Notes: generated by a model from the letters alone, not told the origin. Shown: positions 2 through 26,842, counted from the first letter of the stretch. The stretch is DNA of 26,844 bases from Candidatus Omnitrophota bacterium (GCA_028717985.1 JAQUMS010000001.1:1-26844), one strand, 5' to 3'. A program made the numbers and translations.

Positions 2-307
2 AGCCATCAAGAGAGAAACAGCGGCGCCGAAATAAATACTCGACTGAAACATGGATTTAAATTTCACCGCGAACTTTTTATCAAAAGCTTCTTCAAGCAG
101 GAACTGAACAACGGCAGTAAAGAATACAACTTTATACGCATATTCTCCGAATGCAAAGCCGTTTAGCACAACTGACTGATAAAAATAAGCCGTGTTAAAC
201 ACAATATCCCGGTTCATAGCTACCATACCTATGATAAACGTAAGTATATTAAATATCCTCAGATTGGTCTTAGTATACAATTTTAAGACTGCATTATCCG
301 TGGCTGA
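2..307 (-). other. Start of a hydrophobic, probably multi-pass membrane module (truncated by the window edge)
   Basis: After DGG at 308-316: LRIFNILTFIIGMVAM, VVFFTAVVQFLL, SIYFGAAVSLLMA, which are hydrophobic stretches of TM-like character. Family not assignable. Confidence 0.55.
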
Positions 308-3300
308 ACCTCCATCCTGCTCGAAAACTGATTTACCGGATGCCCCGTTAAATGTCATCGCGTCCCAATACATAAGAATATATTTTATGGCGCTGTTATT
401 CCAGGAGAAATCAACTTTGCGTAAATTTTCCAGTATTCGCAGCCAATGGTCTTCCTGAGAATACGTTTCCAGCGCCCTCTGGATCGCTTCCTGCAACGCT
501 TCAGGCGTCGGATCAAAAAACACAAAGCCGTATCCGGTCTTGCGCAAAGGATCATAATTTTCAATCGTATCCGCCAACCCTCCTACATACCGCACCACCG
601 CGGGCGTTCCGTAACGGGCAGCGATCATCTGAGTCAACCCGCACGGTTCATCAAGAGAGGGAACAAGGAAAATATCCGCGGAGGCGTATACGAGATGAAC
701 AATACTTTCATCAAGGAACTTAGGAAGGATGTACGCCCGGCCGCGGAAATCCCACTTCCCTTCAGGGTCGTATTCAAACGGCAGCCAACGAATCTGGTCA
801 ACAGACTGTTTGTCATATTCCCTGCCGGCAACAATGATCTGAGCGTTACGGTTTGCCTTCAAAATGTCGCGAATTTTAGCCGCAAGCAAACCTACTCCTT
901 TTTGGTCATCCAACCGGGCGATCAAAGCGATAACCGGCGCGGTCCGGTCAACTTTTAACCCTAATAATTTTTGGAGCACTTCCTTATTATTGCGTTTTTG
1001 CTCAAAACTTTCCCTGACATTGCCGTGCGCGAAGTCATACCGGAACGGTAAAATAGGATCAGTTGCCGGATTATAGAAATTATAATCAATACCGTTAATA
1101 ATACCGGAAAACCGGAATTCACGTGCTTTCTGTGATAACAACCAATCAAGATCCCTTCCGCCTTCGGCAGTAGTTAATTCGTACGCGTGGCGTTCGCTTA
1201 CGGTATTGGCTCTGTTGGATTTAACGATCCCGCCTTTCAATAAATTCATTGACCCGAAATTATCAAATACACCGCCATATTCATAGGGAAGATTCAACAG
1301 AGAGAACCGATCAAAAGAATGAACACCTTGATGCCGGATATTATTTATTGTCAGTATCGGCTGCATTCTGGAGAAATAATGCCTGAATTCGGGAAGCCCG
1401 TCTTTATAAACCAGAGATAACGCGCTGTCTTTATCATGCGCGTGAATAATATCGTAACTATTTTTATGTAATTCAGGGATATCTTTCATTGCCTGCAATG
1501 ATCCCCGTGATATAAGAATCGCCTGCTCAAGGCTTAGTTGATCCGAGTAAGGATATTCTGCCAATACACTGCCGCTTCCCACAGGTTCCAGCACATATCC
1601 GCGCAGGCGGCCTTTAAGATCGTGAATTCCCGGAAGAGTATGCAGGTTTGTCCTGTACACCTTCACTTCCACGGTCCAGGTACTGCCGATTGGAACCCAT
1701 ACGCTGCCGATATATTCGTAACGTAAATTTTGATCAGCGGGAGAATTAGTCGGCTTACTATATTTAAGGGTAAAGATATCAACATTATGCCCTATTTTAG
1801 CCAATTCCTTGGATAGACCATACCCGACATCGGCCAAACCTCCTACTTTATAGGTAAGACGGGTAACTTCAAGAGCAATTTCCGCGATCTGTAAACTCCG
1901 GAACGGCCTTTCCGGCCAGTCAGGGCGCAATAAAGTGATTACTTTCTTGAAATTAGCCGGCTGTAAATAATTACGTATATTTTTCCATGAACTTTCGTCG
2001 GCGGCGGGGATACGCAGACGGGAAACAGCCCGTAAAACAGTACTCATTAATTTAAGCGCTAATTCTTCGCTCGAAAAATCGTCTAATTTTTCAAAAATGT
2101 AGAGCGTCCGGCTGATAATATCAAAATACATTTCGGGAACCGGACGCGACGCTTCTTTAATAAGAATAATATTGCTTTCCCGTACCGCGCGGTACACATC
2201 TATTTTCCCAACTCCATACGGCAATTCCAATTCAATGCCGGCAATAAGAACCAAGGCATGCAGATACAGATCCACATCACGCTTCGCGGGATCCTTCCAT
2301 TGCGACATAATAACCGGATTCACTCCCTGGATACGGTATCCGCGTTCTTCCAGACGCGCTTTTTCTATCTCTGCATATGCGACATTAATTTCTTTTGTCT
2401 GACCGCGGGCTGATTTTTTCCGGCTGGTTCCGCCATCTTCAAGCACGCGCACTGAAATAGATTTAGCTTCTGCTCCAACTTTACGGATGGTAAACGCGAG
2501 CGGTTCAGCTATGGAAGCCAATAAATAATGGATATCATTCTCGGTTATATTCTCAAACATTTCCTTGGTCGGGACTACGATCTCTCCGCTTATCTCCTGC
2601 CAGCCGAAATCAAGGTATGTTTCATTGATAATAGGGAAAATCGATTTTCTCGGCAATATCACGATCTTTTTCTCCGGGCCGCTCCTCGCGAAGATCAGAT
2701 TATGCGGAATATTATTTCTTAAGAACTGAGCAATAATCATACTTGTCAGACGGGCGACTCCTAACGCGTTCTCCGAACGGACCACGTAACTTTCAGCCGG
2801 ATAATCGACTGTTTTTTCAAACAATACGCCGGAAATATCTTCAACCGTTTCGGTAGCGAATTTCTCCACCGGTATCACACCCCAATAATAGAATCCCTGG
2901 ATATGAAGATGAAACACCCTCGTTCCGCCGCCAAGGCTGTTAAAACCAAGCCTGAAATTGGAAGCCTTGCTCATATCAAGCAGTGCGAGCGCAACACGGA
3001 TCTCGCGTTCACTGATCACCTGAGGAAGGTTAGCTTTACGTTCCGGCACCATAAAGAAATTATAAGCGACTCGGGGCTGAATATTGATAAACAAATCCGT
3101 ATTAACTCCTCCCACGTTCAGCGACATCAGAAGCTCTTGCGGATTGGCTTTATGGAAATTAAATTTAGAAGGATTATAACCCTGGATAGGCGGCATCAAT
3201 TGTTTCATAAGATTTATCGTCATGGGCCGGTCCGGATGGAAAAGAACCTTGAATTTTCCTTCATCCCGTAAGGAAACGCGGGAAATGTCAAAACCAAATA

Positions 3301-21300: not shown

Positions 21301-24300
21301 ACAATTCCATCATTTCAGCAGCTTTCTCCGCGTTCATCTTCACCACTTCTGCAATATGCGCCGCCGGTAATTCTGCCATCGCCTCTTCCATGGAAACCTG
21401 GCCTAAGCCCATGATAAACGGCCGTGAGTTAAACAGATAATCGGTTGTAAACGTGTGGATTAATCCATCCCGGGTCCTGCCCAGGGATTTCAATAACGCT
21501 TTTCCGGTCTGCTGAAGCGGTTTTCTGGTTTCGCGGTTCAACCAAGCCTTCAGACAAGGTTCCATTTCCGTCAAGATTGATATGGACATCGCGTCGCCCA
21601 TCTGAGCGATTCGTATAAATCTGCCTATCATCGCGTTGCTCACAGCACGGGTAAGTTTAACCGGTTTTATTTCCGCCCCATATTGATCTGCGGCTTCCTT
21701 CCCGAACAAATACGCCTTAAGCTCAATCAAAATACGATTAACCAGGTATGTTTCTTCAACAGGAATTGTTCCCAATGTCTTGATCTTGGCTATTTTAACC
21801 AGCATTGTTTTTTCCGCGTAGGCTGATTGCAATAATTCCATCACGATGTTTTCATCCGTAAATTTATGGTTTTTCTGCAAACCAATATCGTTAAGATATT
21901 CCGTCAAGAAGTTCACCGCGCGATACCGAACAAGCATATCTTCCGCGTCAATGCTTAATTCCACTAAAGCCTTTGGCAAATCAAAATTTTCGGCATTAAG
22001 TTTAATTAACGCGCGGTAAGCCTGGATCATTGTGTCGCGATTCGCAAGCGCTTCACTCAACGCGCTAATAACGGCTTCATCGTTTACGCCTAATTCTCCA
22101 AGCGCTTCCGCCATACGAACACCGGCCAATGGATCTTCGTTTTCCAATCTATTGATCAATACATGCTTTGTTTCTTCCGCGAAAACGGTATTCTGAAGCT
22201 GTTTCACTAATTCAAGAATACGCGTCCGGGAAATCTCAGTTCTTAAAAGTTCAACACCATCAGCAGTTACATCTGTTCTTCCGTCCACCATCCATTGTCC
22301 TTCGCCTCCCTGCTCAACATCCCCGCCGTCTCTATAGCTCATAGAGTTTGCGTCCTTCGTCCTTCGTCCTTCGTCCTTCGGATTAACATTTTCTTCCTGT
22401 CTATTTTTAATGTTATTTTCAATTAATTCTCTATCACTTTCAGATGGAGTATAGAATCGCGCGATTTCAGATAATTCCCTAGTTATCAATAACCGCTGTA
22501 GCCTGCTTAACGCAGGATTAACTTCCATGTTGCGTAATACTCCGACTTCATGCCTGAATAACTTCCGGGTAATAGGATGTATTTGCCTATTATCTCCACC
22601 GTCACGATAGCTCATAGATGATAGCAGATAGCTCGTAGTTCTTTGCTCTTTGCTCTTTCTCTTTGCAAAACCGTTATTGCCTTTACTCTGTGCGCTATAC
22701 TCTGTACTCGGTCCTTGAACTACTTGGTCTCTTGATCCCTTGAGCACTTGGGCACTTGTTTCTCCACCATCGTTGGTGTTCTTAGCTTCTTGGTCGCTTG
22801 GGTTCTTGGTCTCTTGGACACTTACATTTAGTGATTTCTTAAGAAATTCTGCCGCTTCCAATACATTCGCAGAAATTGATTCTAAACTGATCCAACCCTT
22901 AACTGAATACTCCTGAATTTTGTTGATTTCTGCTAAAGCATCAATAATTTCCTGATCTGTCCCTGTAACTGTGTATGGAGCGTAGGTATAAACATGAACC
23001 CTTAAAGGAGCTACCTGTTGCACGAAATGCTGTATAAAATCAAGATAGGATATTCTCATCTGTAAAGGCTTGGACATAAGAATCACGGTATAATCGCCGA
23101 AAGATAATAAACCGCTTGATAAAAGCATTTCCTTTGCATTTTTTATATTCTCATTTGTATTGGTCGATTTAGTTTCCAGGATAATCTTCTCTTCCGGAAC
23201 AACATGAAGCGTCAATAACTTCGCGATAATTTCAGCTTCGCTTAAAACTTCAATATTTTCAAATACATTGCCGAAACCGGCCTTCCTGACGTTTTCAATT
23301 AACGGAGCAGTTAACCTGCCTTGAGCGCCTGAAACCAAAATCTTATCAGTCTTTCCTTCAGTATACAACCCGGACGCATGCCTCATGGTTGATAGATCAT
23401 CATTACCTAATAAAATGGTCATATCAGCTTTATACACTGGCAGAACGCTGATCTTATCATGAGCCATAGTCAAATAATCGGCAATTGTCTGCAATGCTTT
23501 TGCCTGCTGTTCTCTGGGATCTGCTTTCTTTCCGGCTAACCATTCATTCAGCTTCCCGGTCTTATGGGCATACCACAAACCTGCTGCGAGGCCAATTCCA
23601 ACACCTGCCACAATACCGAAGAATTGAGTCTCAGCCATGAATTTCAAAAGCGAGCCATTGTCAACAAAGAAACCTCCATCGTTATGTTTTGCTTCTGTAA
23701 TTTCAATCAGGATATCTGCAAGATAATTATTTTCATAAAGCGGTTTCTGCTTTTTTATACCTGTTATATGATCTTCAGGCACATCAATGATTTTTATTCC
23801 TACCGCCTCCAAAGATTCCCGCTCAGTCCCCAGAAATAATGGCTGTTTACCTTGCACTTTTTTGCTTACCTGCGCCTTTCCTTCTTTAATCGCAAGGGCA
23901 TCTGTTCCCGTAATAATTATTGTGCTCAAATATTCCGAAGTTTCCGGTTTTAAATCAGGAACCACTACATGCGAAATAATATCTTCAATCTTGACTTCTT
24001 GATTAAGTGTCCTGCTTACATGCCGCCGTACAGCCTCAAGCTGCCATCCTAAAGATACCTGATCTTTAATATTTAATGTATACTTATCATCTTTACTCAA
24101 TGCCGCCTTATCAACCGGTTCACCTTTATTATCAAGAATCTTAATCGATTTTGCAGTCTCTAAATCCGCCTTTATCTTGGCTATGAATACTACCGGAACT
24201 CCAGCTTTTCTTCTTGATACCAATTCTTTGGCGATTTCAGGATATAACAACACTGGCATCAAAGATGTCCATAAAGAACCATTACCCATAATTATTGCTT

Positions 24301-26842
24301 CGGATTCATTTAACGCTTTGACCGCCTGACTGCTTGCCTTAGGATAATGTAACGACGTCTGGTCGAGTCTTACAAAATCACGGCTTGCCTTTTCTTCATC
24401 CGCACCTACACGATGATGAAAAAATATCTCCCAGACAAAATCATCGTGGATACTATCTGTCATTCTTGTCTGCGTCCTAATAGAATCCCCATTCATATAT
24501 ACACCTACAAGCGAGCTGTGTTCATAATCATAACTAACGGGTATAAACTGTGTTCCCTTCAACGCCAACAACTGCTCTACTGTGAAAAATTCTCCCGCCT
24601 GAACGCCTTTCTCGCCGATTAATCCGTTATCATATGCCGCTCCCATCAACAATAAATTAGCACTCGACATTTTCTTTAACGGAATTATACCTTTGCTGAT
24701 TAATTCACGGTCAAGCATCTTTCCTAGATTTAATATACTAGAGGTAAATACAAAAGAATCTTCAGGAATTTCAAAATTAACTCCTTCTTGGTTCAAGATT
24801 TCCCCGCTTTCTATTGCTGATCTTAATTGCGCTTTCCTGACAGGATTTGACATCGCGGAAAGCATTTCGGCAAGCCTTCTTTCCCATACGGGATAAACTT
24901 CTTCAGCGGTAATACGCCCTTTAGTTGTCACAAATACAGGCATTTCTTTAGGATTAGACTCGCACCAGAATAATGTTAGTATCTTAAAATTGTCATCGCT
25001 TAAGAATATTGCCAATCCCGACGTATCGCCCGGCGGGATAAAATAAATACCTAATTTATTGAATAAACTCGCCATAATTTCCCAGCTTGCTCCTCCATCA
25101 TCCGATGATGAAATAATACAAGCTAAAAGTCGTAAGCCTTTGGCGATAAATTGCTGTAGCAAAGTTGTAGTAGCCTTACCACCTCCACCTAAATAGGCGA
25201 TTTTCGGTGGTGCACGTCCAGATTTCCCTTTAAGTATCTCCTGTTTATATCTTAAATAATATCCATCCTGGAAATATCCCGCTAAGGTCCGGCTGATGCT
25301 AATCTGGGTCTCTTTATGCGCCGCTTCGATATCACGAATTAAATCTTCATTTGTTTTTTTCAAATGATCTTTATATAACCACTGTAAAAATGCGAGTGTA
25401 CGAGCAGCCCGAGGATCTGTTCCCGCATAAAAATCTATTAAATTCAAGCCGTGATGTTGCAAATAAATTCTATCTATTATTTTAAAATAATCATCTATAC
25501 AGGAAACAGTGTTATATGCTTGCATTACGTCCTGTAATGCCCTGTTTAATTCTTGGCCCTGAGCAACTTTCATTCCTTTCAAATAAAGCCTGGTCCATGT
25601 AGAACTTTTTAAATAAGTAAGATTAAATGAATCATAGGTTTCGCTTAAAAAATCAATTTTCTCTTTAAAAGTTAGATTGTTATATCGTCGGGAATTTAAT
25701 TGTTCCTCCAGATATAATAATGACGCTATCGAACAATAATCATGCGATTTATCTTTCAAATCTCTAAAGTTTCCGCCTTTGGATATTCCATCAAGGAAAT
25801 AATATATTGCTCCCAATCCAAAACCTATATGTTTAAAGGCACTCCCCGATATCAGCTGTTTATTTCTCCCGTTTACATCATTTATATAACGATGTATCCC
25901 AGGAACAAGTTTAAACGGTTCATCTTCCGAATAAACCTCAAGATTACCAAATAGTATTGCATCTTCCCCTTTAATCCCTCGCTCTTTTAGATAATCCTGC
26001 AACGCATGATCTTTACCCGTTTTAATATTCCTGATATCTATTGAAGTTACGCCGGATTCCCGGACTATTATTGTTTCTTTCAAATCAGGATTTTGTTCAA
26101 TTGCCGCCTTAATGTCTTTAAAATATGATTCTCGTAAAGATTGTTCTTTTGCCTCTAAATTAAAAACTTCCAATTTCCTTGAAGGAAGATATATCATACT
26201 TATACTGTATACTCTTCCGGAAATATCTTTGTGGAAAATTATCTCCAGATCTTTAAATGTAAAATTAGGATATTTATTTCTCCATACACTCTTGTTTTGT
26301 TGATATTCATCCCAATATTTTTTCTTTAAATCTTGCAGAATATTATTTATGGCAGATACGGACTTTTCGGTAATATATGTTTTTTCGTTATATGTGTTTT
26401 TAGTCAGAGGTATTCCGTATTCATTGAATTCCACCTTGAATGTTCCAGCTGACGCATATATTACCAAATTCTTTCTCACATCATACGGTATCAGCTCCAC
26501 GACTCTTGAATAAATACCCTTTTCTTTCGTATGATCGTCATCGTAATACCGTAAGTTACTAATCAGCACGATCTTCTGCCCTTTCCTCAGCAGTTCCACC
26601 AACGGCTCCCGTACAAAGCTTTCTTTTAATGTCCCTTTACGGAATTTGTCATACGGCAAAATTACTCCATCCGGACCTCCCAATACTATTACTTCCGGAT
26701 TCCCGCTCCTTTCGTAGCCGCCGTCATTTTCAATTTTAGAGGGTTCATGTTCAACCCTGATCTTCTCAATAACCCCAACCAGATTCTCATTCTCATACAA
26801 TGGACTCTGCGTCTCAATTCCTGTAACCTTGCTCTCATCTAT
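2..26842 (-). CDS. Giant multidomain protein, internal fragment (>=8,947 aa; start and stop both outside the window); DGG-delimited carbohydrate-metabolism and cell-envelope modules
   Basis: Manual translation of the minus-strand frame whose codons begin at + positions 2,5,8,... shows no TAA/TAG/TGA across the window. Recognisable enzyme motifs occur in this one frame from end to end (EPCGLTQ at 629-649, HLHIQ at 2897-2911, SDDGG three times, DGDGT at 14291-14305, STNTNEN near 23150). Confidence 0.96.
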   Translation of the reverse strand, partial: MDESKVTGIETQSPLYENENLVGVIEKIRVEHEPSKIENDGGYERSGNPEVIVLGGPDGVILPYDKFRKGTLKESFVREPLVELLRKGQKIVLISNLRYYDDDHTKEKGIYSRVVELIPYDVRKNLVIYASAGTFKVEFNEYGIPLTKNTYNEKTYITEKSVSAINNILQDLKKKYWDEYQQNKSVWRNKYPNFTFKDLEIIFHKDISGRVYSISMIYLPSRKLEVFNLEAKEQSLRESYFKDIKAAIEQNPDLKETIIVRESGVTSIDIRNIKTGKDHALQDYLKERGIKGEDAILFGNLEVYSEDEPFKLVPGIHRYINDVNGRNKQLISGSAFKHIGFGLGAIYYFLDGISKGGNFRDLKDKSHDYCSIASLLYLEEQLNSRRYNNLTFKEKIDFLSETYDSFNLTYLKSSTWTRLYLKGMKVAQGQELNRALQDVMQAYNTVSCIDDYFKIIDRIYLQHHGLNLIDFYAGTDPRAARTLAFLQWLYKDHLKKTNEDLIRDIEAAHKETQISISRTLAGYFQDGYYLRYKQEILKGKSGRAPPKIAYLGGGGKATTTLLQQFIAKGLRLLACIISSSDDGGASWEIMASLFNKLGIYFIPPGDTSGLAIFLSDDNFKILTLFWCESNPKEMPVFVTTKGRITAEEVYPVWERRLAEMLSAMSNPVRKAQLRSAIESGEILNQEGVNFEIPEDSFVFTSSILNLGKMLDRELISKGIIPLKKMSSANLLLMGAAYDNGLIGEKGVQAGEFFTVEQLLALKGTQFIPVSYDYEHSSLVGVYMNGDSIRTQTRMTDSIHDDFVWEIFFHHRVGADEEKASRDFVRLDQTSLHYPKASSQAVKALNESEAIIMGNGSLWTSLMPVLLYPEIAKELVSRRKAGVPVVFIAKIKADLETAKSIKILDNKGEPVDKAALSKDDKYTLNIKDQVSLGWQLEAVRRHVSRTLNQEVKIEDIISHVVVPDLKPETSEYLSTIIITGTDALAIKEGKAQVSKKVQGKQPLFLGTERESLEAVGIKIIDVPEDHITGIKKQKPLYENNYLADILIEITEAKHNDGGFFVDNGSLLKFMAETQFFGIVAGVGIGLAAGLWYAHKTGKLNEWLAGKKADPREQQAKALQTIADYLTMAHDKISVLPVYKADMTILLGNDDLSTMRHASGLYTEGKTDKILVSGAQGRLTAPLIENVRKAGFGNVFENIEVLSEAEIIAKLLTLHVVPEEKIILETKSTNTNENIKNAKEMLLSSGLLSFGDYTVILMSKPLQMRISYLDFIQHFVQQVAPLRVHVYTYAPYTVTGTDQEIIDALAEINKIQEYSVKGWISLESISANVLEAAEFLKKSLNVSVQETKNPSDQEAKNTNDGGETSAQVLKGSRDQVVQGPSTEYSAQSKGNNGFAKRKSKEQRTTSYLLSSMSYRDGGDNRQIHPITRKLFRHEVGVLRNMEVNPALSRLQRLLITRELSEIARFYTPSESDRELIENNIKNRQEENVNPKDEGRRTKDANSMSYRDGGDVEQGGEGQWMVDGRTDVTADGVELLRTEISRTRILELVKQLQNTVFAEETKHVLINRLENEDPLAGVRMAEALGELGVNDEAVISALSEALANRDTMIQAYRALIKLNAENFDLPKALVELSIDAEDMLVRYRAVNFLTEYLNDIGLQKNHKFTDENIVMELLQSAYAEKTMLVKIAKIKTLGTIPVEETYLVNRILIELKAYLFGKEAADQYGAEIKPVKLTRAVSNAMIGRFIRIAQMGDAMSISILTEMEPCLKAWLNRETRKPLQQTGKALLKSLGRTRDGLIHTFTTDYLFNSRPFIMGLGQVSMEEAMAELPAAHIAEVVKMNAEKAAEMMELFNTNDGGEFSPKDEGRRTKDANSKSYRDGGEVLANEGQGTFSLDARRFLVELDYVMRMLGISDYKRVVQILRTSIDSVAFVKGMAEAAGLGTDEAAEILEGVKFFRPVVEDYKLRQVKEYGKGEFADKKISVDIQAEGYGIEGGESSVEGGAITEYLRFMRETAGMVSFVFRDNMNDFTGRFLGLTAIKGASKYPDLKELIERLDAYFATVDLGRIEYVFTSGIGANEMYTHQLAWALNKYFEMRGIHVKWVVVNNPAHLKIIPAGANNKNTLIFEMSRSGSTKETVDFFNATKDRFKQRIVAANSGKLNEAGKELMKDADARILVIDDIPGDIGGRQMNRKTLMVYIPLYLGLVAGLKDVEEARKYLEYYVSTMAGANEELAYSNGLKSGGIKLAEMLFRQRMNGHNRFAIIYDNDLRFIAKEFLQLNNEGANKNIAGGTNNNVLVGYGLESDRTLYETVFEQAGNTQLPIFLLNRNNGNYRQAYEYAESLERRGIPVIIVSLDIKEDLRNNLEVIGRTSSLLQDMVVYFTYLTKQDANSNPAVKFVREITAAMFEIEKAKKARGDKDIRVTFEDVISKIQAKETENRIKSEKSIDVDKKDKTKRIIRRGYEEAEGEDFRTFMEAIVEVGTKLMIAESRVVRVLTSAIAEEVFKSDFAEAGGSKISDMEAAFGKSFMDAMRKTDNKPVTLNQQVVIETQDQDKMKISVAVEKGEEIETEGYSAAEALGMYLIKMFTGRKEKMMYMPLTFMEVDAENPKIKAIARGIVERFAGKGITCPLLGLPGVAHTGIEAIMSHPENVFNIAIVYTNTYGKGLGTQMVEENITVDDATYVYGIANVIRMALGGSPTIIFEVRDAKDLDEVKAILEPALDMLKAWMTSDGGYERSGNPEVIVLGGPDGVILPYDKFRKGTLKESFVREPLVELLRKGQKIVLISNLRYYDDDHTGEKGLATRIVKYLPYDVRKNLAVYASAGTFKVEYNEYGIPLTENDYNNSNYIPEKQVEVIESVLKEQANRFWAEYEGNKSLMRNKYPNYPFKKPEVILHRDAKGRVYSVSIIHLPSKKLEIVNIEEGEMSPREECCRGTIELLKKYHSLFWEEYTVRESGITSIDIRKRHTGKDHALRDYLLSREIEGKDALLFGNLQVYSEDLPFKNVEGVRRYINDIVEKTDENYEVEGFKHIGFGLGVVYYFLDGMSKGKTFVELREAGDYCLNAAETYLKRQNVKRVNRSLTFAERMEVLSEVYRQFNLNYLNRASWIDLYQLGIGMKRGEELYEALEEMKNIYEVSKTAEEYFAGADKIYGGREGIEFMKFYAGIDARAARTLGFLESVYKDNLKRNNRQLEEAVWDVKKNTGLSVGRILAGYFQDGYYQKYKESILEQYEGRGPPEKKGLLDLVYLGGGGKATTTFLQRLIAKGLRKIACIISSSDDGGASWEIMASLFKNLGMYFIPPGDASGLAIFLSNDNFKIFTLFWSESDADKMPEYVTTKGRITGEKLYPVWEKRLSEVLTAIEEPTQKEEIKSLIRKILKNPSEEFEKSTDYLIFLSSVLNLGELVDRELVGQGIIPLKKMSSANLLLMGAAYDMGLLSGGKDSQAVGFPNLDKLMALGETQFIPVSYDYEHSALVGKYENGGLVAAQTIMTDKAHKEFIREEYFTHRVDIGKEANNFIELDINSENYPKASRQAVEALSRAKAIVMGNGSLWTSLMPVLLYKEVAEELVNRRRLGVPVVYIAKMKADLETSKDVRIEKEGKVVESKDIKEEEEYELNISEQLTLNKQLEAITWHISKVLGREVKIEEIISHVIAPELSEDAKVKLGEVKIKGKDAKLVLQGSAQVSKHVKGGQPLFGEGEEADLQARGIEIVRIDESKVTGIETQSPLYENENLVGVIEKIRVEHEPSKIENDGGERKNNTIKNKDDKSSLEQKYKDAYKQVYKVSRAAVAKTRKDLGIAVCIDKDNNPLPLEGLSTIIRPDDENAKKILSIQQGLYGVLPESLQKKMIFVKEHDLHITLGVINNATPNNHDVILLLRNKVEDSFPGSLRLSGIKIGAFKGGIIILEFYPDGVSDYKIFDSINKGVKESFLEFNQFNPVLYHMTLFYVKELLTEEEHKILYEKIEEFRPLKQSVLLLVDNLYLEHFCASVNVYDHDIIGTFFNLKQKYNIISTLLSQELTEMLVEEGGRQIRKFLEKLSTGGKSAYADLSKVQGLWEAVEEYGKEPAKYSTETLLKRDSSSIPRIEVRGRNESSGEAAQVAIIGIPLNYREDTMKEFRRLPGAEKMSLKMGGFMTVEANIAGVDKALPIRYVRSHLVEILEVAGYEAGIVIDARKTMTIVMSDGDGTLYGKPTATENPILKKSAAYRALIEYLNAGGVYMLISGNDLGLTLQRILAEDALPVEIRNRFIVVANGAASLNVFDKEGNIKEYTGYRLNALNEEAEEQEELDAIYLGDDEKKGGNDWPAYEEMGFERSVSVTSKGKKDVMDIVHKNYVGGNEVGTGLVLKGAVEYAREHRGERLFGIKELEALIRISESEITAPSQNDGGLGMSRKEDYKQNLVLFERLYQKDADEVLQILKVEADHTGRFLDEIVAGIVGILEIKDSKSLYSNLNFTKLARAPPIEYIWIGGAGIRTTSFLKSLVNYFMKKAGDKYRNYKRLIVLAIDGVSDDGGHIRKLEDSLLNVPGWDKYPLATGDIGVFPSIFTLSDSKIELLTLKRITGKSVEEQIFENIKDITFRFRDNLPVDWNFFCANMFSVARRIDREWVAPGIITESLNGASFGVNRASWQNLFYVMSRYLTGELKKGNQHISNERRVYPGVYEMVGAINGLAVPCSFDQSSMAAILQGMGVKINDEVMVIGKANGNFYYTKVEGIVINVERIEDGKNVKERKIFFRTTPLKTDKFHLISRKGVSFTLGGKKIKLTVNKNGSVILRCNGEKFTISEDKGDEGKTFIRYRNQDYVLPTNTSWFFLKINHSFIEFKSRMVEEQTNISDAKDYHLTPIEKVIFRNVEMKAVGVQQGKIRTYAFRKSGEYSYANLEAIEGIRSTKQAIIFGDCSFVTSLLPNLMTEGIPQEMAARKDIPRIFMFKIMQDTESKGLSVIQQIELIERSIRMNTSFKSFKFKDICDYIVLFDPQEIDAATYWKFQALKEEQRKILEQPEIQKRIAIGELKYSKIVPEDPAEFNKDTLKEELARKGIKSYFVKVSDVKLSEINGKYAYKEESMIRILHEIVKDFSGEDGGEGKEDIKETRGILYGFLEETGLLPMFSNYGEFPESHQIFEAWKFYDEKLSSAQVYYFSKNVILGKADVEIEKDIISLHSCWFRSFVPGHEFGREIIARTFIRGAEIGELVYGQMPAEVERYYTLSQREEKELDEWDGIFDGSIAAGIQQQINNSDAYFKKIFTTELKSISLIYEDRKLGIIRESTLSFIARAKSEWIRYMYKKRFPEAKFNKNDIERLLKINFLINKYITLKSISKLNLETEKLLLINKILLDIENNLNDFLQLGDKNSPEFFEDRMGKDNFVNSKIVKDINYRDGGEKPVVRTMRIPSTPATWKRIENLKRFNHQMANGITAEDSRSQLEGSSLEEIYNGKGKGGIIITAVQPDQKVLKEMEIEAGMRPKTFFIKYDHKKLTLFYFTQKEAKEYQTRVALGDEEVILPDISVILKIAGVSVVHIDGKQYLGLADYDEFLERIKDIMQRKQSDGGIETYPGYLNGNVISPANAYSTGTEAGQRSYEIPWPFPDKQSIRGIHDPEWVKSFMVVWAISELNERSSRQITVNRILKKTKDVFEAHGFTWDRDHVISLLNGLRRRGLIVNAKSGNRKDFSVEEDKVTVDLNARLYAVWSRNVEDINVDLAEGFIHGKEEFLNVIAEYAKVTALWGRYPVEVNHVILRAIMFFDESSRKTMADWILSGPRNSALEDAIALNLDYERAVQDWLKMQAYELTGRSIYHLTAEISPMAGGLGRVELYHGNAMFELGADSIYVAPWYLHSRDSFGNLYTVDYGSLPNPITDIKPYATMETFIQGCKVRFEVAQGYLNVKRGDTVNLIPIYLIRDIPENYHCRIINILYEYSTCDCPASIWEFTEFFNKAALELIRKREVEKKHEKELLHEEYKSCVVDSNDAQTLPVAAFRKAFYSKKESIAPAPDKDEAFEIMNSALFSGTTHTYYNRAWADDFEFGKNFLRKAGIPDEWLWLFLHIFVDDYGTWKVVWDLTSGGVRASDVSKAVAAVHAFEVNKYDPAVDLFGVTNGDNYVYSSEFFRDALIKTGSRDYLHPTPLEILAAKSYVKKEMGLNQYQMVVGYFGRLVPEKAGRKRAFTNVNIEAMVKAGIQVVIYGVARWNPVMRGELEALEADLKSKKEKEPDVYSGRFIFKSQFSIDDQRKALAATDVQIQDSDRETEAAGSTESDIGANGGLQLATPYWEGMIPFMGDLVNREKMTGNVLMPEKDSAESYLKVVLWANEQYQSGELSQLQSYAYKISGFVDARYTAAAYLRFWHNGFRGKRAVVNPRVVGEIGIDSKYLTLTSTTSRGEISIFKDENEFYLMGKKKEVGNLAKNLILTLSISVDPEFAPFGSSRVPEDSIFVELVNDHGIRLKFSPVRKIYDNVIEYSLTIPEDFPLPFKGTVRATSGLWQQVRSFEIVPEEYDPLEGDELIETLCPVDFKVNDARNILFGKFGMFPFGFETSEGMQYANSAGIIGFMNKANMLLKNGTTIRTPFYHFIRYIAGLCEGCVTKDILVKHMRFIGSKQISDEEKMKELLELLKQFTRRSEYRLVESWVNGLTIEQMATLMIGNKNVNSFSFRTVSGPVTAETSGLKSFETVLKNLIANRHAEPVIENDFMDFIKYMDAMFKGVKGWEEIMAYLQTIAQEPVPSFLKAYFLFRFVEKLNEKMEENLVEAFINKATLDNAETVLNSGKFDMKPFEFYTLRGRWMADSAGLQDFLFTMKQVNGKGGVSFHDYMNYLRKLFEDMPDSKYMMDYLEYVGSHEIPEYKKFVALLEKLEVRLISRIQYYRMFSCEPAQSGFKCEVDLESPERFFDGGIADKNTVITSGIKNQSGNEILVTRKKMVMNIKDTLLKKADILGALRAPVSEVEAVKLISRYQLNIIMALANGTAYDSLQKGAQRKIAMENYEYLLSLMGVDAHFKKTIRTASHKIVNIKILQIKKTFSDKALAIKAKGEVMNILEARDIVGRYYYIIHALAVSLPYSSLREDFRNTIAEDSYEYLQDEMVNDKLFGMVITEADTMVLADKVKHESVWERAKILADSENGKLILKDSLKLIGNYAYVLLGLARGLKYVELHSNGLEMVSFHTYNEIVETLTGNPVFRSAVTGSISGIDVTPEYYKQVLEDKADLLLLQEGKISRALAEGLIGYHFEVMRILAEGMPYSSLSDYARRQLSAGIYYYLAREIVDDAGFGRKIVRASGKAINIRMEGIKNKILASARKIVNDEEIVGITQAKAKINHNYLIIHSLAHAQQFEISPVGRQKILVKASYEFLLGEMKRDEMFADYIIHADQMVIAKNGWRKILMGRAQVLAAKKNANMSPEDAVKLIGNTYFVLRGLSRSLAYQELDHCAWDNISQDEYENILGNKKRDIEFTKIVNNAMRNIYIHQRDITGSLIKKASLVLALDKRIDFWSARKLFGRYIYIFEGLADNVSYRGLDIEAQNLMTSAEYEALLIEVKKNDELKELIVQADSALGIGFWDKRLIILNKAKDIIAHKSSLTLAQASGIVGPYRYVLRALDENLPYHSVYAETRAVVSEKQYAVLQDLMKEDYLFAVMIRNAVSIIKVQKSNFNINEITHNPIMAVFLEIQSGDVSEKWKQSLSVRDQEYADIFEYLRENDDVLKRVLQLFMIGEVNSDVLARIIKDQLKQPQLKTVTGFGSHMLGAIHRALAKRGYVFDEEWVVTPKTVELLIGYTRNYRKAEGKIFNTDELYSVPSVLARLEEIAGISAVGIQYPLAPEKGAAFSASGFMPQGGIIAQNRENDGGDESEFDRNLKREWDRKFKQGLFGFDISRVSLRDEGKFKVLFHPDRPMTINLMKQLMPPIQGYNPSKFNFHKANPQELLMSLNVGGVNTDLFINIQPRVAYNFFMVPERKANLPQVISEREIRVALALLDMSKASNFRLGFNSLGGGTRVFHLHIQGFYYWGVIPVEKFATETVEDISGVLFEKTVDYPAESYVVRSENALGVARLTSMIIAQFLRNNIPHNLIFARSGPEKKIVILPRKSIFPIINETYLDFGWQEISGEIVVPTKEMFENITENDIHYLLASIAEPLAFTIRKVGAEAKSISVRVLEDGGTSRKKSARGQTKEINVAYAEIEKARLEERGYRIQGVNPVIMSQWKDPAKRDVDLYLHALVLIAGIELELPYGVGKIDVYRAVRESNIILIKEASRPVPEMYFDIISRTLYIFEKLDDFSSEELALKLMSTVLRAVSRLRIPAADESSWKNIRNYLQPANFKKVITLLRPDWPERPFRSLQIAEIALEVTRLTYKVGGLADVGYGLSKELAKIGHNVDIFTLKYSKPTNSPADQNLRYEYIGSVWVPIGSTWTVEVKVYRTNLHTLPGIHDLKGRLRGYVLEPVGSGSVLAEYPYSDQLSLEQAILISRGSLQAMKDIPELHKNSYDIIHAHDKDSALSLVYKDGLPEFRHYFSRMQPILTINNIRHQGVHSFDRFSLLNLPYEYGGVFDNFGSMNLLKGGIVKSNRANTVSERHAYELTTAEGGRDLDWLLSQKAREFRFSGIINGIDYNFYNPATDPILPFRYDFAHGNVRESFEQKRNNKEVLQKLLGLKVDRTAPVIALIARLDDQKGVGLLAAKIRDILKANRNAQIIVAGREYDKQSVDQIRWLPFEYDPEGKWDFRGRAYILPKFLDESIVHLVYASADIFLVPSLDEPCGLTQMIAARYGTPAVVRYVGGLADTIENYDPLRKTGYGFVFFDPTPEALQEAIQRALETYSQEDHWLRILENLRKVDFSWNNSAIKYILMYWDAMTFNGASGKSVFEQDGGSATDNAVLKLYTKTNLRIFNILTFIIGMVAMNRDIVFNTAYFYQSVVLNGFAFGEYAYKVVFFTAVVQFLLEEAFDKKFAVKFKSMFQSSIYFGAAVSLLMA
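368..1895 (-). other. glgA: GT5 glycogen/starch synthase domain
   Basis: LQIAEIALEVTRLTYKVGGLADV (KxGGL at 1835-1849), IIHAHD, LLKGGIVKSNRANTVS, GIINGIDY..NPATD, IARLDDQKG, VPSLDEPCGLTQMIAARYGT..VVRYVGGLADT, GFVF, DFSWNNSAIKYILMY. The full GlgA motif series is in the correct order. Confidence 0.95.
2438..3361 (-). other. HIT-superfamily GDP-hexose phosphorylase domain (GDP-L-galactose phosphorylase VTC2 / GDP-D-glucose phosphorylase GDPGP1-like)
   Basis: EWDRKFKQGLFGFD, YNPSKFNFHKANPQELL, LFINIQP..FFMVP..LPQVI, FRLGFNSLGGGTRVFHLHIQG (HxHxQ at 2897-2911), FGWQEISGEIVV. These parallel the VTC2 motifs EWEDR..GLFRYD, KFNFTK and FRLGYNSLGAFATINHLHFQ. DGG lies on both sides. Confidence 0.85.
3900..6040 (-). 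repeat. Eight degenerate ~90-aa helical protein repeats of unknown family
   Basis: The motif [LI][IVF]GxYxY(V/I)(L/I)x(A/G)LAxx(L/M)xY recurs with the Gly-position codon at 6029, 5753, 5483, 5213, 4940, 4670, 4400 and 4130. Spacings are 276, 270, 270, 273, 270, 270 and 270 nt. Confidence 0.8.
7442..9490 (-). other. Alpha-glucan phosphorylase (GT35)-like GT-B domain with C-terminal beta domain; PLP-lysine position is Asp
   Basis: YHLTAEISPMAGGLG, IYLIRDIPEN..ILY, DSNDAQ, FSGTTHT (8831-8842), SKAVAAVHAFEV, FGVTNG, GYFGRLVPEK, IQVVIYG, TDVQIQDSDRETEAAGSTESDIGANGGLQL (8105-8131 = EAAGSTESD), then a beta domain ending YSLTIP..GTVRA. Order and spacing match bacterial GlgP. Confidence 0.78.
10223..11608 (-). 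other. Two DGG-bounded modules of unknown function (294 aa at 10727-11608; 165 aa at 10223-10717)
   Basis: Open in the main frame and bounded by DGG at 11609, 10718 and 10214. No motif recognised. Part of the region is very AT-rich (8 G+C in the 60 nt of 10921-10980). Confidence 0.6.
11640..13470 (-). other. YvcK/GlmR (UPF0052, CofD-like) domain, divergent copy C, with a ~130-140 aa beta-rich insertion
   Basis: YIWIGGAGIRTT, LAIDGVSDDGGHIRKL, LATGDI, VEEQTNISD, ANLEAIEGIRSTKQAIIFGDCSFVTSLLPNLMTEGIPQEM, IPRIFMFKIMQDTES, AYKEESMIRIL. Confidence 0.75.
13750..14810 (-). other. HAD class IIB (Cof/PMM-like) phosphatase or mutase domain with non-canonical motif order
   Basis: EANIAGVDKA (motif III-like, 14414-14428) precedes SDGDGTL (motif I, 14291-14305), LISGN (motif II, 14177-14188), ANGA (14087-14098) and YLGDDEKKGGND (motif IV, 13943-13972). 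Confidence 0.8.
14880..15420 (-). other. 2H phosphoesterase (LigT / cyclic phosphodiesterase fold) domain
   Basis: Two Hx(T/S)-hydrophobic motifs 85 aa apart: DLHITLG (15272-15283) and LYHMTLF (15017-15028), preceded by EGLSTII. AT-rich segment. Confidence 0.75.
15588..15714. repeat. Perfect direct repeat of 26718-26844 (end of the YvcK module including the DGG codons; the match runs off the window)
   Basis: 127/127 identical, offset 11130 nt (in frame). Confidence 0.97.
15600..17130 (-). other. yvcK: YvcK/GlmR (UPF0052, CofD-like) domain, copy B
   Basis: LVYLGGGGKATT, ACIISSSDDGGASW, FIPPGD, SSANLLLMGA, QFIPVSYD, YPKASRQAVEALSRAKAIVMGNGSLWTSLMPVLLYKEVAEEL..PVVYIAK..LET. Confidence 0.85.
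17740..18652 (-). other. Degenerate (pseudo-)HAD IIB domain, copy B
   Basis: VIVLGGPDGVIL (motif I with the nucleophile Asp replaced by Gly), IVLISN, VYASAG, SGITSIDIRKRHTGKDHAL (motif III), LLFGNLQVYSEDLPF (motif IV, GD changed to GN). Confidence 0.65.
18464..18661. repeat. Near-identical direct repeat of 26528-26725 (start of the HAD-YvcK module up to the DGG codons)
   Basis: 198 nt with 4 mismatches, all synonymous; 18549-18661 is a perfect match. Offset 8064 nt. Confidence 0.95.
18670..19230 (-). other. Second, partial PGI-like C-terminal (SIS) segment
   Basis: MMYMP..ARGIVERFAGKGITCPLLGLPGVAHTGIEAIMSHPENVFNIAIV..ALGGSPTIIFEV parallels the PGI segment Y..L..QL.AESLGK.G..P....G..DQHS..Q...GP.D...A...GRP.I.I. 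It ends at DGG 18653. Confidence 0.5.
19640..20790 (-). other. pgi: Phosphoglucose isomerase (SIS)-like domain
   Basis: VFTSGIGANEM (20621-20638), LIFEMSRSGSTKET (20444-20470), IPGDIGGRQ (20291-20305), AIIYDNDLRFIAKEFLQLNNEGANK (19997-20023), YLTKQDANSNPAVKFVR (equivalent to NPFDQPGVE..K). Confidence 0.75.
21211..21272. repeat. 62-nt direct-repeat cassette copy 1, containing (CGTCCTT)4 and the RDGG codons
   Basis: Identical to 22321-22382 except one base (21231 T vs 22341 A). Encodes PKDEGRRTKDANSKSYRDGG. Confidence 0.97.
21290..22321 (-). other. Alpha-helical module with a HEAT/PBS-lyase-like repeat
   Basis: LINRLENEDPLAGVRMAEALGELGVNDEAVISALSEALANRDTMIQAYRALIKL (about 22010-22160). The module is flanked by the two 62-nt cassettes. 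Confidence 0.6.
22321..22382. repeat. 62-nt direct-repeat cassette copy 2, containing (CGTCCTT)4 and the RDGG codons
   Basis: 61/62 identical to 21211-21272, offset 1110 nt (in frame). Encodes PKDEGRRTKDANSMSYRDGG. Confidence 0.97.
22604..22830. repeat. Degenerate 7-nt-periodic tracts forming low-complexity in-frame linkers
   Basis: atagctc-atagatg-atagcag-atagctc-gtagttc-tttgctc-tttgctc; tactctg-tgcgcta-tactctg-tactcgg; tacttgg-tctcttg; tcttggt-cgcttgg-gttcttg-gtctctt. They lie between and next to DGG 22595 and DGG 22763. Confidence 0.75.
22850..23490 (-). other. YdcF / DUF218 (ElyC/SanA-like) domain
   Basis: IADYL..KADMTILLGNDDL..ASGLYTEGKTDKILVSGAQGR..SEAEIIAK..VPEEKIILETKSTNTNENIKNAKEML..VILMSKPLQMR. 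Confidence 0.85.
23563..23625 (-). other. Single predicted transmembrane helix preceding the YdcF domain
   Basis: FFGIVAGVGIGLAAGLWYA, uncharged and Gly-rich, followed by HKTGK. Confidence 0.75.
23700..25205 (-). other. yvcK: YvcK/GlmR (UPF0052, CofD-like) domain, copy A
   Basis: KIAYLGGGGKATT, ACIISSSDDGGASW, FIPPGD, SSANLLLMGA, YPKASSQAVKALNESEAIIMGNGSLWTSLMPVLLYPEIAKEL. Paralogous to 15600-17130 with many synonymous differences. Confidence 0.85.
25780..26716 (-). other. Degenerate (pseudo-)HAD IIB domain, copy A
   Basis: Same GGPDGVIL, IVLISN, SGVTSIDIRNIKTGKDHAL and ILFGNLEVYSEDEPF motifs as copy B. Confidence 0.65.

Follow-up and report, generated by a model that had tools for sequence, protein, structure and literature searches.

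A DGG tripeptide marks module borders in giant multi-enzyme reading frames of an Omnitrophota bacterium and is a candidate cleavage site

Proteins of 10,000-150,000 residues pose the question of how a cell makes, folds and uses them. The stretch of DNA analysed here (the window) comprises 26,844 bases of a Candidatus Omnitrophota bacterium (JAQUMS010000001.1:1-26844). Its one long open reading frame (ORF) encodes a chain of enzyme modules, and the tripeptide Asp-Gly-Gly (DGG) recurs between them. A preliminary description of this DNA proposed that DGG is a processing signal that releases individual enzymes, a recombination core for module exchange, or both. What is this tripeptide for? The answer we reach, predicted from sequence, is that a protease acting in trans on a bacterial polyprotein recognises DGG and probably cuts there. 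We give this reading a probability of roughly 0.5.

The window is the entire contig C1 of a metagenome-assembled genome (MAG) of 1.63 Mb in 299 contigs, designated G000. It is covered by a single minus-strand frame (2..26842) of 8,947 codons, which has no stop and is open at both contig ends. The RpoC encoded in this MAG shares 87% identity with its counterpart in ‘Ca. Omnitrophota bacterium STC_70’, and its best 80 matches come nearly all from Omnitrophota/Omnitrophica MAGs or from auto-labelled MAGs interleaved among them. In the same MAG, 35 of the 299 contigs consist wholly of one ORF each (62 kaa combined; kaa, thousand amino acids), and genomes of the same family have ORFs of 30,624, 52,518, and 57,756 codons. 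Taken together, these data identify the window as a fragment of a giant multi-enzyme ORF (P0001) of an Omnitrophota bacterium. Giant-ORF fragments total about 286 kb, or 17% of the MAG (contigs C9, C32, C49, C52, C37, C65, and others). At many of their ends, contigs share 76-198 aa with other contigs at 98-100% identity (examples are C100/C292, C111/C196, C243/C266, C277/C9, and C279/C98), so the giants of this genome are broken at repeated modules.

Pfam families found over or near the cut-off in the window are CofD (three times), DUF218, GT5, and GT1; HEAT_2 is just under the cut-off, and a Hydrolase_3 (HAD) match is below it. These matches cover about 15% of window residues, which is too sparse for a boundary test by itself. 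The window is a chain of complete protein-sized modules, several of them having no family match in these scans. The set includes two HAD-like + YvcK/CofD modules, a third YvcK/CofD module, a transmembrane (TM) + DUF218 module, HEAT repeats, a GDPGP1/Apa2-like phosphorylase, and a GT5 glycogen synthase.

The window contains 20 DGG tripeptides, while 2.45 are expected from its composition (2,000 shuffles gave a mean of 2.4 and a maximum of 9; z = 11). Among the tripeptides occurring more than twice, DGG is the most over-represented one, and D precedes 20 of the 64 GG dipeptides. As listed in the preliminary description, 17 of these sites are linkers and three are SDDGG motifs inside the CofD(YvcK) domains, all in the single minus-strand frame (Table 1). 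Two or three of the sites are non-independent, being parts of a duplicated HAD-YvcK module and of a twin 62-nt cassette; the approximately 14 independent sites are still far above expectation. In the whole genome, ORFs of at least 1000 aa contain 99 DGG vs 18.9 expected, and ORFs below 600 aa contain 53 vs 86.8. In the giant fragments (95 kaa) DGG is the top tripeptide by far (119 vs 24.5 expected, z = 19). The excess in G000 is confined to giant ORFs, and the comparison of the window with shuffled controls places it far above background. We also considered avoidance of DGG in ordinary proteins as a diagnostic feature and rejected it: the observed/expected ratio of 0.61 is about the same as the 0.58 found in giants of related genomes and thus represents a baseline.

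An excess of this kind might come from chance, composition or misassembly. The assembly of the MAG is fragmentary, with repeats at its contig ends, and the junction at DGG 40 lies inside a 125-nt repeat at the contig end. Such an origin is nevertheless practically negligible, given the z-scores of 11 and 19 for the window and the genome. Moreover, an 8-nt word is unable to cause misassembly, contigs of about 95% identity span many DGG junctions in metagenomes from other studies, and the same mark is present in two further genomes (see below).

The preliminary description placed DGG at domain borders, and comparison of paralogous modules locates it there precisely. Residues 1-42 of the frame are identical to residues 3711-3752 (125 of 125 nt) through DGG and unrelated to them from the next codon. 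The opposite is seen for the sequences from residue 40 on and from residue 2728 on, which show no relation ahead of DGG but are homologous from its D onward (88.8% nucleotide identity over 320 nt). Contig C268 of the same MAG carries the tail of the module that ends at DGG 2728 (98% identical), then DGG, and then a HEAT-type module in place of HAD-YvcK. Among BLAST high-scoring segment pairs between giant fragments, 31% of ends and 17% of starts are within 10 aa of a DGG, compared with 3.8% of random positions. Thus DGG coincides with module borders to the codon.

The phosphorylase-like module, here S15, provides a test that does not depend on paralogues. We searched S15 with its flanks against 1.84 billion representatives and obtained 89 free-standing homologues of up to 400 aa. 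Those alignments that reach the N-terminal part start at a median query position of 40, two residues past the first DGG (36-38). The projected C-termini of the homologues have a median of 342, five residues before the next DGG (347-349), and none of the 89 extends beyond it. An AlphaFold2 model built from 90 sequences has a mean pLDDT of 83; the value is below 50 in residues 1-31, reaches 97 from residue 41 (four after DGG), and drops to 64 and then 49 around the second DGG. The model matches the yeast Ap4A phosphorylase Apa2 over its whole chain (E 3e-11), and the homologues carry Pfam domains GDPGP1_N and GDPGP1_C. PDB sequence searches with S15 and with a PGI-like module gave no matches. 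Homologue termini and the model agree in bounding the module by two DGGs, as had been suggested for a GDP-hexose phosphorylase. S15 is equivalent to whole free-standing homologues, and border precision is demonstrated for this one module. In the glycogen synthase module, the position equivalent to the last residue of E. coli GlgA lies 14 residues ahead of DGG 8843. An ENA contig (L168) encodes a complete non-giant fusion of GDPGP1 and GT4 (P0037, 2,012 aa) among ordinary genes. In it, DGG directly precedes the conserved FDxxLxxxWDxR helix that opens GDPGP1, as in the window; this may be chance.

A logo over 113 sites of G000 reads [N/S/F/R]-D-G-G-[D/E/N/T], with little information beyond position -2 and at most 0.4 bits at upstream positions. 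None of the 17 window sites or the 113 genome sites departs from GG. The residue before the linker DGG in the window is N in seven cases and R in four, as described before; the remainder are S and E (two each), F, and Q. A subfamily ...(A)KSYRDGG occurs on several contigs of the genome. The 25-30 residues upstream of DGG are hydrophilic, with binned mean Kyte-Doolittle values of -0.8 to -0.9 vs a background of -0.25, and composition is normal again within about 10 residues downstream of GG. Each module closes with a hydrophilic tail of about 25-30 residues ending in x-[N/S/R/F]-D-G-G-[D/E/N/T], and the next one begins no more than a few residues after GG.

Giant ORFs of related genomes bear a different mark. 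Their top tripeptide is SSP within the pattern [S/A/T]-S-S-P-[L/I/V/M], with observed/expected values such as 65/8.4, 69/6.1, 42/2.9, and 41/7.7 in single ORFs. In the pool of 17 giant ORFs from nine relatives (316 kaa) DGG is found 46 times vs 80 expected and xSSPh 193 times vs 2.5 expected, while in the pooled giants of G000, with their excess of DGG, xSSPh is found once vs 0.8 expected. In the relative G018 (contig C2) SSSP marks flank GlgA and DUF218 modules at places equivalent to DGGs of the window. Serines of the marks are encoded by AGY as well as TCN codons, each ORF having 24-34 distinct 9-mers, and SSSP is therefore a peptide signal too. Several giants of one genome share their mark (C2 and C4 of G018, C5 and C7 of G022, C1 and C13 of G010). 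Three giants of relatives, G020:C5, G010:C7, and G017:C6, have neither the DGG nor the SSSP mark. In the first of them (57,756 aa) RAPP occurs 12 times vs 0.31 expected, and in the second (13,532 aa) KPI occurs 15 times vs 2.4 expected. These may be further marks or domain-start motifs; in the window, RAPP is also found ahead of the GGGG loop of CofD.

A profile search found two DGG-dense homologues, P0019 (GCA_041663465.1, G222) and P0152 (GCA_026387435.1, G223). Genome-wide counts of a DGG[D/E]-coding pattern and of its reversed control are 55/13 in G000, 44/15 in G223, and 34/11 in G222, vs 18/30 in G018 and 41/38 in G219. The ratio thus lies at 0.6-1.1 in SSSP genomes, is about 3 in G222 and G223, and reaches 4.2 in G000. 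Giants of G222 and G223 contain 80 DGG vs 8.4 expected (30.9 kaa) and 40 vs 5.1 (13 kaa) and no SSSP, where the ratios are biased upward by selection of these giants by pattern hits, whereas the genome-wide pattern/control ratios are unbiased. The residue before D varies by genome (K/A, R/K/L, or N/S/F/R). The DGG that follows the third CofD module of the window is kept in P0152, which is 30% identical there, with a linker that differs in length by 10 residues.

In an RpoC tree the three DGG genomes fall in one clade (support 100/99) together with the SSSP trio G018, G218, and G219; SSSP genomes are also found outside this clade. Forcing monophyly of the DGG genomes costs 6.3 lnL units (AU test, p = 0.049). 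This is a test of a single gene and of a group named after the tree had been seen, for which one and two switches of the mark are indistinguishable, and the monophyly of the three is borderline. No giant ORFs were located in STC_70 (G217), which is the closest MAG. Since giants of relatives lack the DGG excess and have SSSP, and two further Omnitrophota genomes have DGG, we conclude that DGG and SSSP are alternative, mutually exclusive marks that are specific to a genome or lineage.

Is the mark kept as a peptide or as a DNA word? At DGG sites D is encoded by GAC in 75% of cases and G by GGC in 58% (26% overall for each). The word GACGGCGG is present at seven of the 17 linker sites, as the preliminary description stated, and at 60 of 116 sites of the genome, always in frame 0; about 35-42% would be expected from context, and 48% of the sites use other codons. 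However, at any DG dipeptide of G000, in giant or ordinary genes, D is GAC in 62-64% (26% overall), and at any GG dipeptide the first G is GGC in 45-57% (26% overall). We therefore rejected GACGGCGG as a DNA-level linker signal. Its residual excess (52% vs about 35-42%) is small and comes in part from paralogous junctions. As DGG sites show the same codon bias as DG/GG codon pairs throughout the genome, and serine codons of SSSP are mixed, selection acts on the DGG peptide and not on the DNA word. This is what the preliminary description had supposed from the varying codons. The habit of using GAC and GGC before Gly may reflect avoidance of ATG-like or Shine-Dalgarno-like words.

The sequence of the window is found in four landfill metagenomes and, at about 95% identity, in activated-sludge and sludge metagenomes of other studies. 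Contigs of these metagenomes often terminate at DGG junctions. Alternative joints were found from 18651 to 13690 (runs X1 and X8) and from 26715 to 13690 (run X5), with an overlap of 10-11 nt at the DGG codons; both link the tail before DGG 13691 to the start of a HAD-YvcK module. Hence modules are re-ordered or repeated exactly at the mark. In runs X1, X2, and X8 there are contigs in which 22344 is followed by 37 other letters and then by 21224 (or 22334), an indication of variants or paralogues whose HEAT-type modules differ in number. Sludge contigs also have in-frame skips inside module S1, of 2,583 nt (X8, 23681 to 26265) and 2,529 nt (X5, 23953 to 26483), and related populations may have a much shorter S1.

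These joints are also what one would see if GACGGCGG were a recombination core, a microhomology that drives module shuffling and is kept for that. Homology breakpoints lie exactly on DGG, contig C268 links the same module tail to a different module there, both alternative joints overlap at DGG codons, and the word is somewhat more frequent than context predicts. Still, we regard such a role as improbable. The preference for GAC and GGC before G is shared by ordinary genes, nearly half of the sites use other codons, the octamer is found in frame 0 only, and the equivalent SSSP marks, with AGY and TCN used freely, have no DNA-level conservation. Breakpoints in linkers are equally expected if selection spares only in-frame exchanges of whole modules. 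The sharing of GACGGCGG, offered earlier as a sign of a recombination core, reduces to a genome-wide codon-pair habit.

One mark at all junctions of a genome's giants, and chemically unrelated marks between genomes, point to a trans-acting, genome-encoded reader. The simplest reader would be a site-specific endopeptidase. The polyprotein would then be cut, possibly co-translationally, into separate enzymes and membrane proteins, as are viral polyproteins. The most economical chemistry would be that of a papain-like cysteine peptidase cutting after Gly-Gly, and candidate enzymes are C39 double-glycine peptidase domains embedded in giant ORFs of G000. Such domains with catalytic Cys/His are present in three giant-ORF contigs (C170, C294, and C32), and the domain of C170 aligns to PCAT1/ComA/LahT. 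Among C39, S8, Trypsin_2, C48, and Prok-JAB, C39 is the only family found inside giant frames of G000: S8 and Trypsin_2 are in short frames only, Prok-JAB has one weak sub-threshold match in a 235-aa frame, and Peptidase_C48 was not found.

A search for a co-occurring protease, proposed with the cleavage idea, thus yields a candidate, though one whose presence does not track DGG. We considered a C39 type tied to DGG and rejected it: SSSP relatives have an active-looking N-terminal C39, and G223 has only that type. That C39 is the cutting enzyme is accordingly doubtful. In G020:C5, G010:C1, G018:C4, and G219:C3 the N-terminal C39, about 180-300 aa from the N-terminus, keeps Cys/His. About 100 aa after the C39 of relatives there is a sequence E-A-K-K-[VI]-L-G-A-R-S (or A-M-K-I-M-G-A-A). 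E-A-K-K-[VI]-L-G-A fits a classical double-glycine leader (Glu at -8, a hydrophobic residue at -4, G at -2) and is probably, to judge from this pattern, the cut site of C39 itself.

Besides the distribution of C39 in SSSP genomes and in G223, several other points weigh against cleavage at DGG. No C39 was found in G222. DGG sites lack the hydrophobic residues at -4, -7, and -12 and the Glu at -8 of classical leaders: leader position -4 corresponds to logo position -1 (N/S/F/R), and leader positions -7, -8, and -12 (logo -4, -5, and -9) have 0.2-0.3 bits with no preference for hydrophobic residues or Glu. Some pieces between DGGs are just 20-88 aa long and would be released as small peptides, and the three CofD-internal SDDGGs would need protection by folding. 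The upward bias in the giants of G222 and G223, mentioned above, belongs here as well, as does the modest size of a membrane effect to which we now turn.

The only strong TM helix within residues 1-8842 (residues 1074-1092) begins 16 residues past DGG 1055; its flank is acidic on the N-terminal side and rich in Lys on the C-terminal side. Paralogous HAD-YvcK modules of cytoplasmic type lie on both sides of it. If the chain were uncut and the helix were a real membrane span, these paralogues would be in different compartments; the topology is thus consistent only with a chain that is cut or with a helix that stays out of the membrane. Cleavage at DGG 1055 would leave a short free N-tail and an N-out/C-in anchor, so that the DUF218 module would start like a protein with an N-terminal signal anchor. 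In general, 14 TM segments start within 40 aa after a DGG vs 7.0 expected (p = 0.01), and 20 start within 40 aa after an SSSP mark vs 8.8 expected, while TM segments end before a mark no more often than expected. The enrichment after DGG is supportive but modest.

DGG may alternatively be a linker signal in a chain that is never cut, serving either as a hinge or turn or as a motif to which a chaperone, a targeting factor or a modifying enzyme docks or which it recognises. DGG does lie in hydrophilic linkers of low pLDDT, Gly-Gly is flexible by nature, and the literature on Omnitrophota giants proposes cleavage but demonstrates none; peptides of the V. archaeovorus giant were detected with processing not resolved. 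However, a passive hinge needs neither a fixed sequence nor its wholesale replacement by SSSP-[LIV] in sister genomes. DGG has no hydroxyl, so a shared modification of Ser/Thr cannot cover both marks, and the lone TM helix amid paralogous modules of cytoplasmic type is awkward in an uncut chain. We consider an uncleaved linker rather unlikely, although it is the most serious competitor of cleavage.

The site might also break without a protease, by lability of Asp-Gly or Asn-Asp through a succinimide or by an autoproteolytic fold. Asp-Gly is the sequence most prone to succinimide formation, and N precedes D at seven of the 17 sites. But the Asp-Gly succinimide yields mainly isoaspartate, not scission, there is no conserved fold around the sites, and the CofD-internal SDDGGs would be labile too. 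The labile Asp-Gly bond, one of the two processing signals suggested originally, cannot account for the equivalent SSSP-[LIV] mark, and self-cleavage is very improbable. An action on translation, by ribosome pausing for co-translational folding or by 2A-like bond skipping, has equally little to recommend it. Gly, Asp, and Pro are slow peptidyl-transfer substrates, translation of such an ORF takes tens of minutes, and pauses at borders could aid folding. Yet the residues preceding DGG, which the exit tunnel would read, show hardly any conservation, the sites use the codons usual for their context, and there is no NPGP-like consensus.

Cleavage by a trans-acting protease may be extended to the phylum. 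Giants would then be bacterial polyproteins with a heritable per-genome “cleavage dialect”: the mark would be DGG for this subclade, SSSP-[LIV] for the majority of relatives, and something else in other genomes, and a dedicated protease would recognise it and would have co-evolved with all of the 100 or more junctions in the giants of its genome. We hold this extension tentatively, with somewhat less confidence than cleavage at DGG itself. If it is true, a switch of dialect (SSSP to or from DGG within one RpoC subclade) would mean a change or swap of protease specificity after which every junction was rewritten, and giants would be operons without stop codons.

Omnitrophota giants have been described as “Archaeovorins” (West-Roberts et al. 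2023, bioRxiv 10.1101/2023.11.21.568195) and as “multi-enzyme metabolic clusters” in a catalogue of ORFs of at least 10 kaa (Nielsen & Lui 2026, bioRxiv 10.64898/2026.06.07.730766). Cleavage of these giants is proposed in both preprints, one of which calls the cleavage points unknown; neither preprint names a junction motif or cleavage site or mentions “DGG”. The remark in the preliminary description that no characterised system of this kind was known is therefore nearly right: no sites had been named, but cleavage of Omnitrophota giants had already been proposed. The window and its genome share with these giants the phylum and GT5/GT1, HAD, HEAT, and C39 content, and many enzyme families, a sugar-metabolism set among them, tile the polypeptide in both. 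The window frame, open at both ends, is at least 8,947 codons long, and relatives have uninterrupted ORFs of tens of thousands of codons. The described giants have C39 (or S8) near the N-terminus; the N-terminus of the window ORF is off the contig, and C39 is found on three other contigs of G000. What distinguishes our description is a concrete delimiter, with DGG/SSSP-[LIV] alternation between genomes. Both DGG and SSSP-[LIV] are short strict border peptides, conserved as peptides and not as codons, and lineage-specific. The DGG core, an acidic residue and two glycines, is chemically unlike SSSP and fits a known specificity class of GG proteases.

Substrates of this class include C39 double-glycine leaders (PCAT1, ComA, and LahT). 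Like them, DGG sites have GG at -2/-1 of the presumed cut, closing a segment on the N-terminal side, and a C39 with Cys/His is present in giants of the same genome. Unlike them, DGG sites have no leader pattern, are internal and repeated, and come with no attached ABC transporter, and C39 is equally present in SSSP genomes. Among viruses, papain-like or SUMO-protease-like cysteine proteases cut polyproteins at Gly-Gly-X; coronavirus PLpro cuts at LXGG. The polyproteins pp220 and pp62 of ASFV are cut at Gly-Gly-X by pS273R (PMC8728581). As in these viral polyproteins, many proteins are encoded per ORF and each junction has the same short, lineage-specific consensus ending in GG; in contrast to them, the organism is cellular, the modules are metabolic enzymes, the scale is 10-100 times larger, no C48-type protease was found, and cleavage is a prediction. 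MARTX toxins have an internal C80 cysteine protease that is activated by inositol hexakisphosphate, cuts after Leu, and acts in the host cell. They too are large bacterial multi-module proteins, cut at inter-effector linkers by a protease of the same chain, whereas the modules of the window are sugar-metabolism enzymes of housekeeping type. The 2A/StopGo consensus D(V/I)ExNPG|P requires a conserved upstream peptide, while DGG sites have no NPGP and at most 0.4 bits upstream.

New here are the DGG dialect, the exclusion of DGG and SSSP by genome within one subclade, and border precision for one module. A strict genome-specific delimiter makes protein termini at or next to DGG a testable expectation, and giants can be divided in silico at the mark before their structures are predicted and their modules annotated. 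Since DGG and SSSP exclude each other, genome comparison also offers a way to find the reader of the mark. Should cleavage be confirmed, the giants would represent a polyprotein strategy of cells at a scale unknown outside viruses.

Table 1 Modules, transmembrane helix and DGG sites of the window (positions from the first base of the window; residues of the minus-strand frame)
Feature	Position	Strand	Residues	Remarks
Module S1	23681..26716	-	43-1054	weak HAD match (below Pfam cut-off) + CofD/YvcK-like domain
Module S2	22772..23671	-	1058-1357	N-terminal TM helix, then DUF218 domain
Module S8	15596-18652	-		paralogue of S1 (HAD-YvcK)
Module S14		-	6880-7824	between two DGGs
Module S15	2438..3361	-	7828-8135	complete HIT-type nucleotide-sugar/Ap4A phosphorylase-like module (GDPGP1/Apa2 fold)
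Module S16	317..2428	-	8139-8842	unknown region of ~170 aa, then GT5/GT1 glycogen/starch synthase
TM helix	23567..23623	-	1074-1092	sole strong one in residues 1-8842
DGG linker, KIEN-DGG-YERSG	26717..26725	-	40-42	125 nt upstream identical to residues 3711-3752
DGG linker, AKHN-DGG-FFVDN	23672..23680	-	1055-1057	16 aa ahead of sole strong TM helix
DGG linker, KNTN-DGG-ETSAQ	22763..22771	-	1358-1360	
DGG linker, MSYR-DGG-DNRQ	22595..22603	-	1414-1416	
DGG linker, MSYR-DGG-DVEQ	22322..22330	-	1505-1507	closes cassette PKDEGRRTKDANSxSYRDGG
DGG linker, FNTN-DGG-EFSPK	21281..21289	-	1852-1854	
DGG linker, KSYR-DGG-EVLAN	21212..21220	-	1875-1877	cassette copy 2
DGG linker, WMTS-DGG-YERSG	18653..18661	-	2728-2730	homology to S1 starts exactly at site
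DGG linker, KIEN-DGG-ERKNN	15587..15595	-	3750-3752	
DGG linker, PSQN-DGG-LGMS	13691..13699	-	4382-4384	10-11 nt overlap joints in runs X1, X5, X8
DGG linker, FSGE-DGG-EGKED	11609..11617	-	5076-5078	C-terminal border of third CofD module
DGG linker, INYR-DGG-EKPVV	10718..10726	-	5373-5375	
DGG linker, RKQS-DGG-IETYP	10214..10222	-	5541-5543	
DGG linker, ERFF-DGG-IADKN	6206..6214	-	6877-6879	
DGG linker, NREN-DGG-DESEF	3362..3370	-	7825-7827	N-terminal border of GDPGP1/Apa2-like module
DGG linker, RVLE-DGG-TSRKK	2429..2437	-	8136-8138	C-terminal border of GDPGP1/Apa2-like module
DGG linker, VFEQ-DGG-SATDN	308..316	-	8843-8845	followed by hydrophobic membrane-like module
SDDGG, domain-internal, not linker	25091..25099	-		CofD/YvcK-like module 1
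SDDGG, domain-internal, not linker	17009..17017	-		CofD/YvcK-like module 2
SDDGG, domain-internal, not linker	13313..13321	-		CofD/YvcK-like module 3

Close homologues of the window modules were found neither in the protein database (residues 1058-1880), nor in 200 genomes of the family (residues 1361-1900), nor in the genome contig database, the five RpoC-closest genomes or JGI metagenomes. Module S14 contains long helical repeats of about 90 aa per unit (window 3900-6040) with no Pfam match at E of 0.01 or below. The twin 62-nt cassettes (PKDEGRRTKDANSxSYRDGG) flank the HEAT module (window 21211-22382). Three pieces between DGGs (21221-21280, 22331-22594, and 22604-22762), of 20, 88, and 53 residues, respectively, match no domain; cutting at DGG, if it takes place, would set them free as small basic peptides, or else they would serve as spacers.

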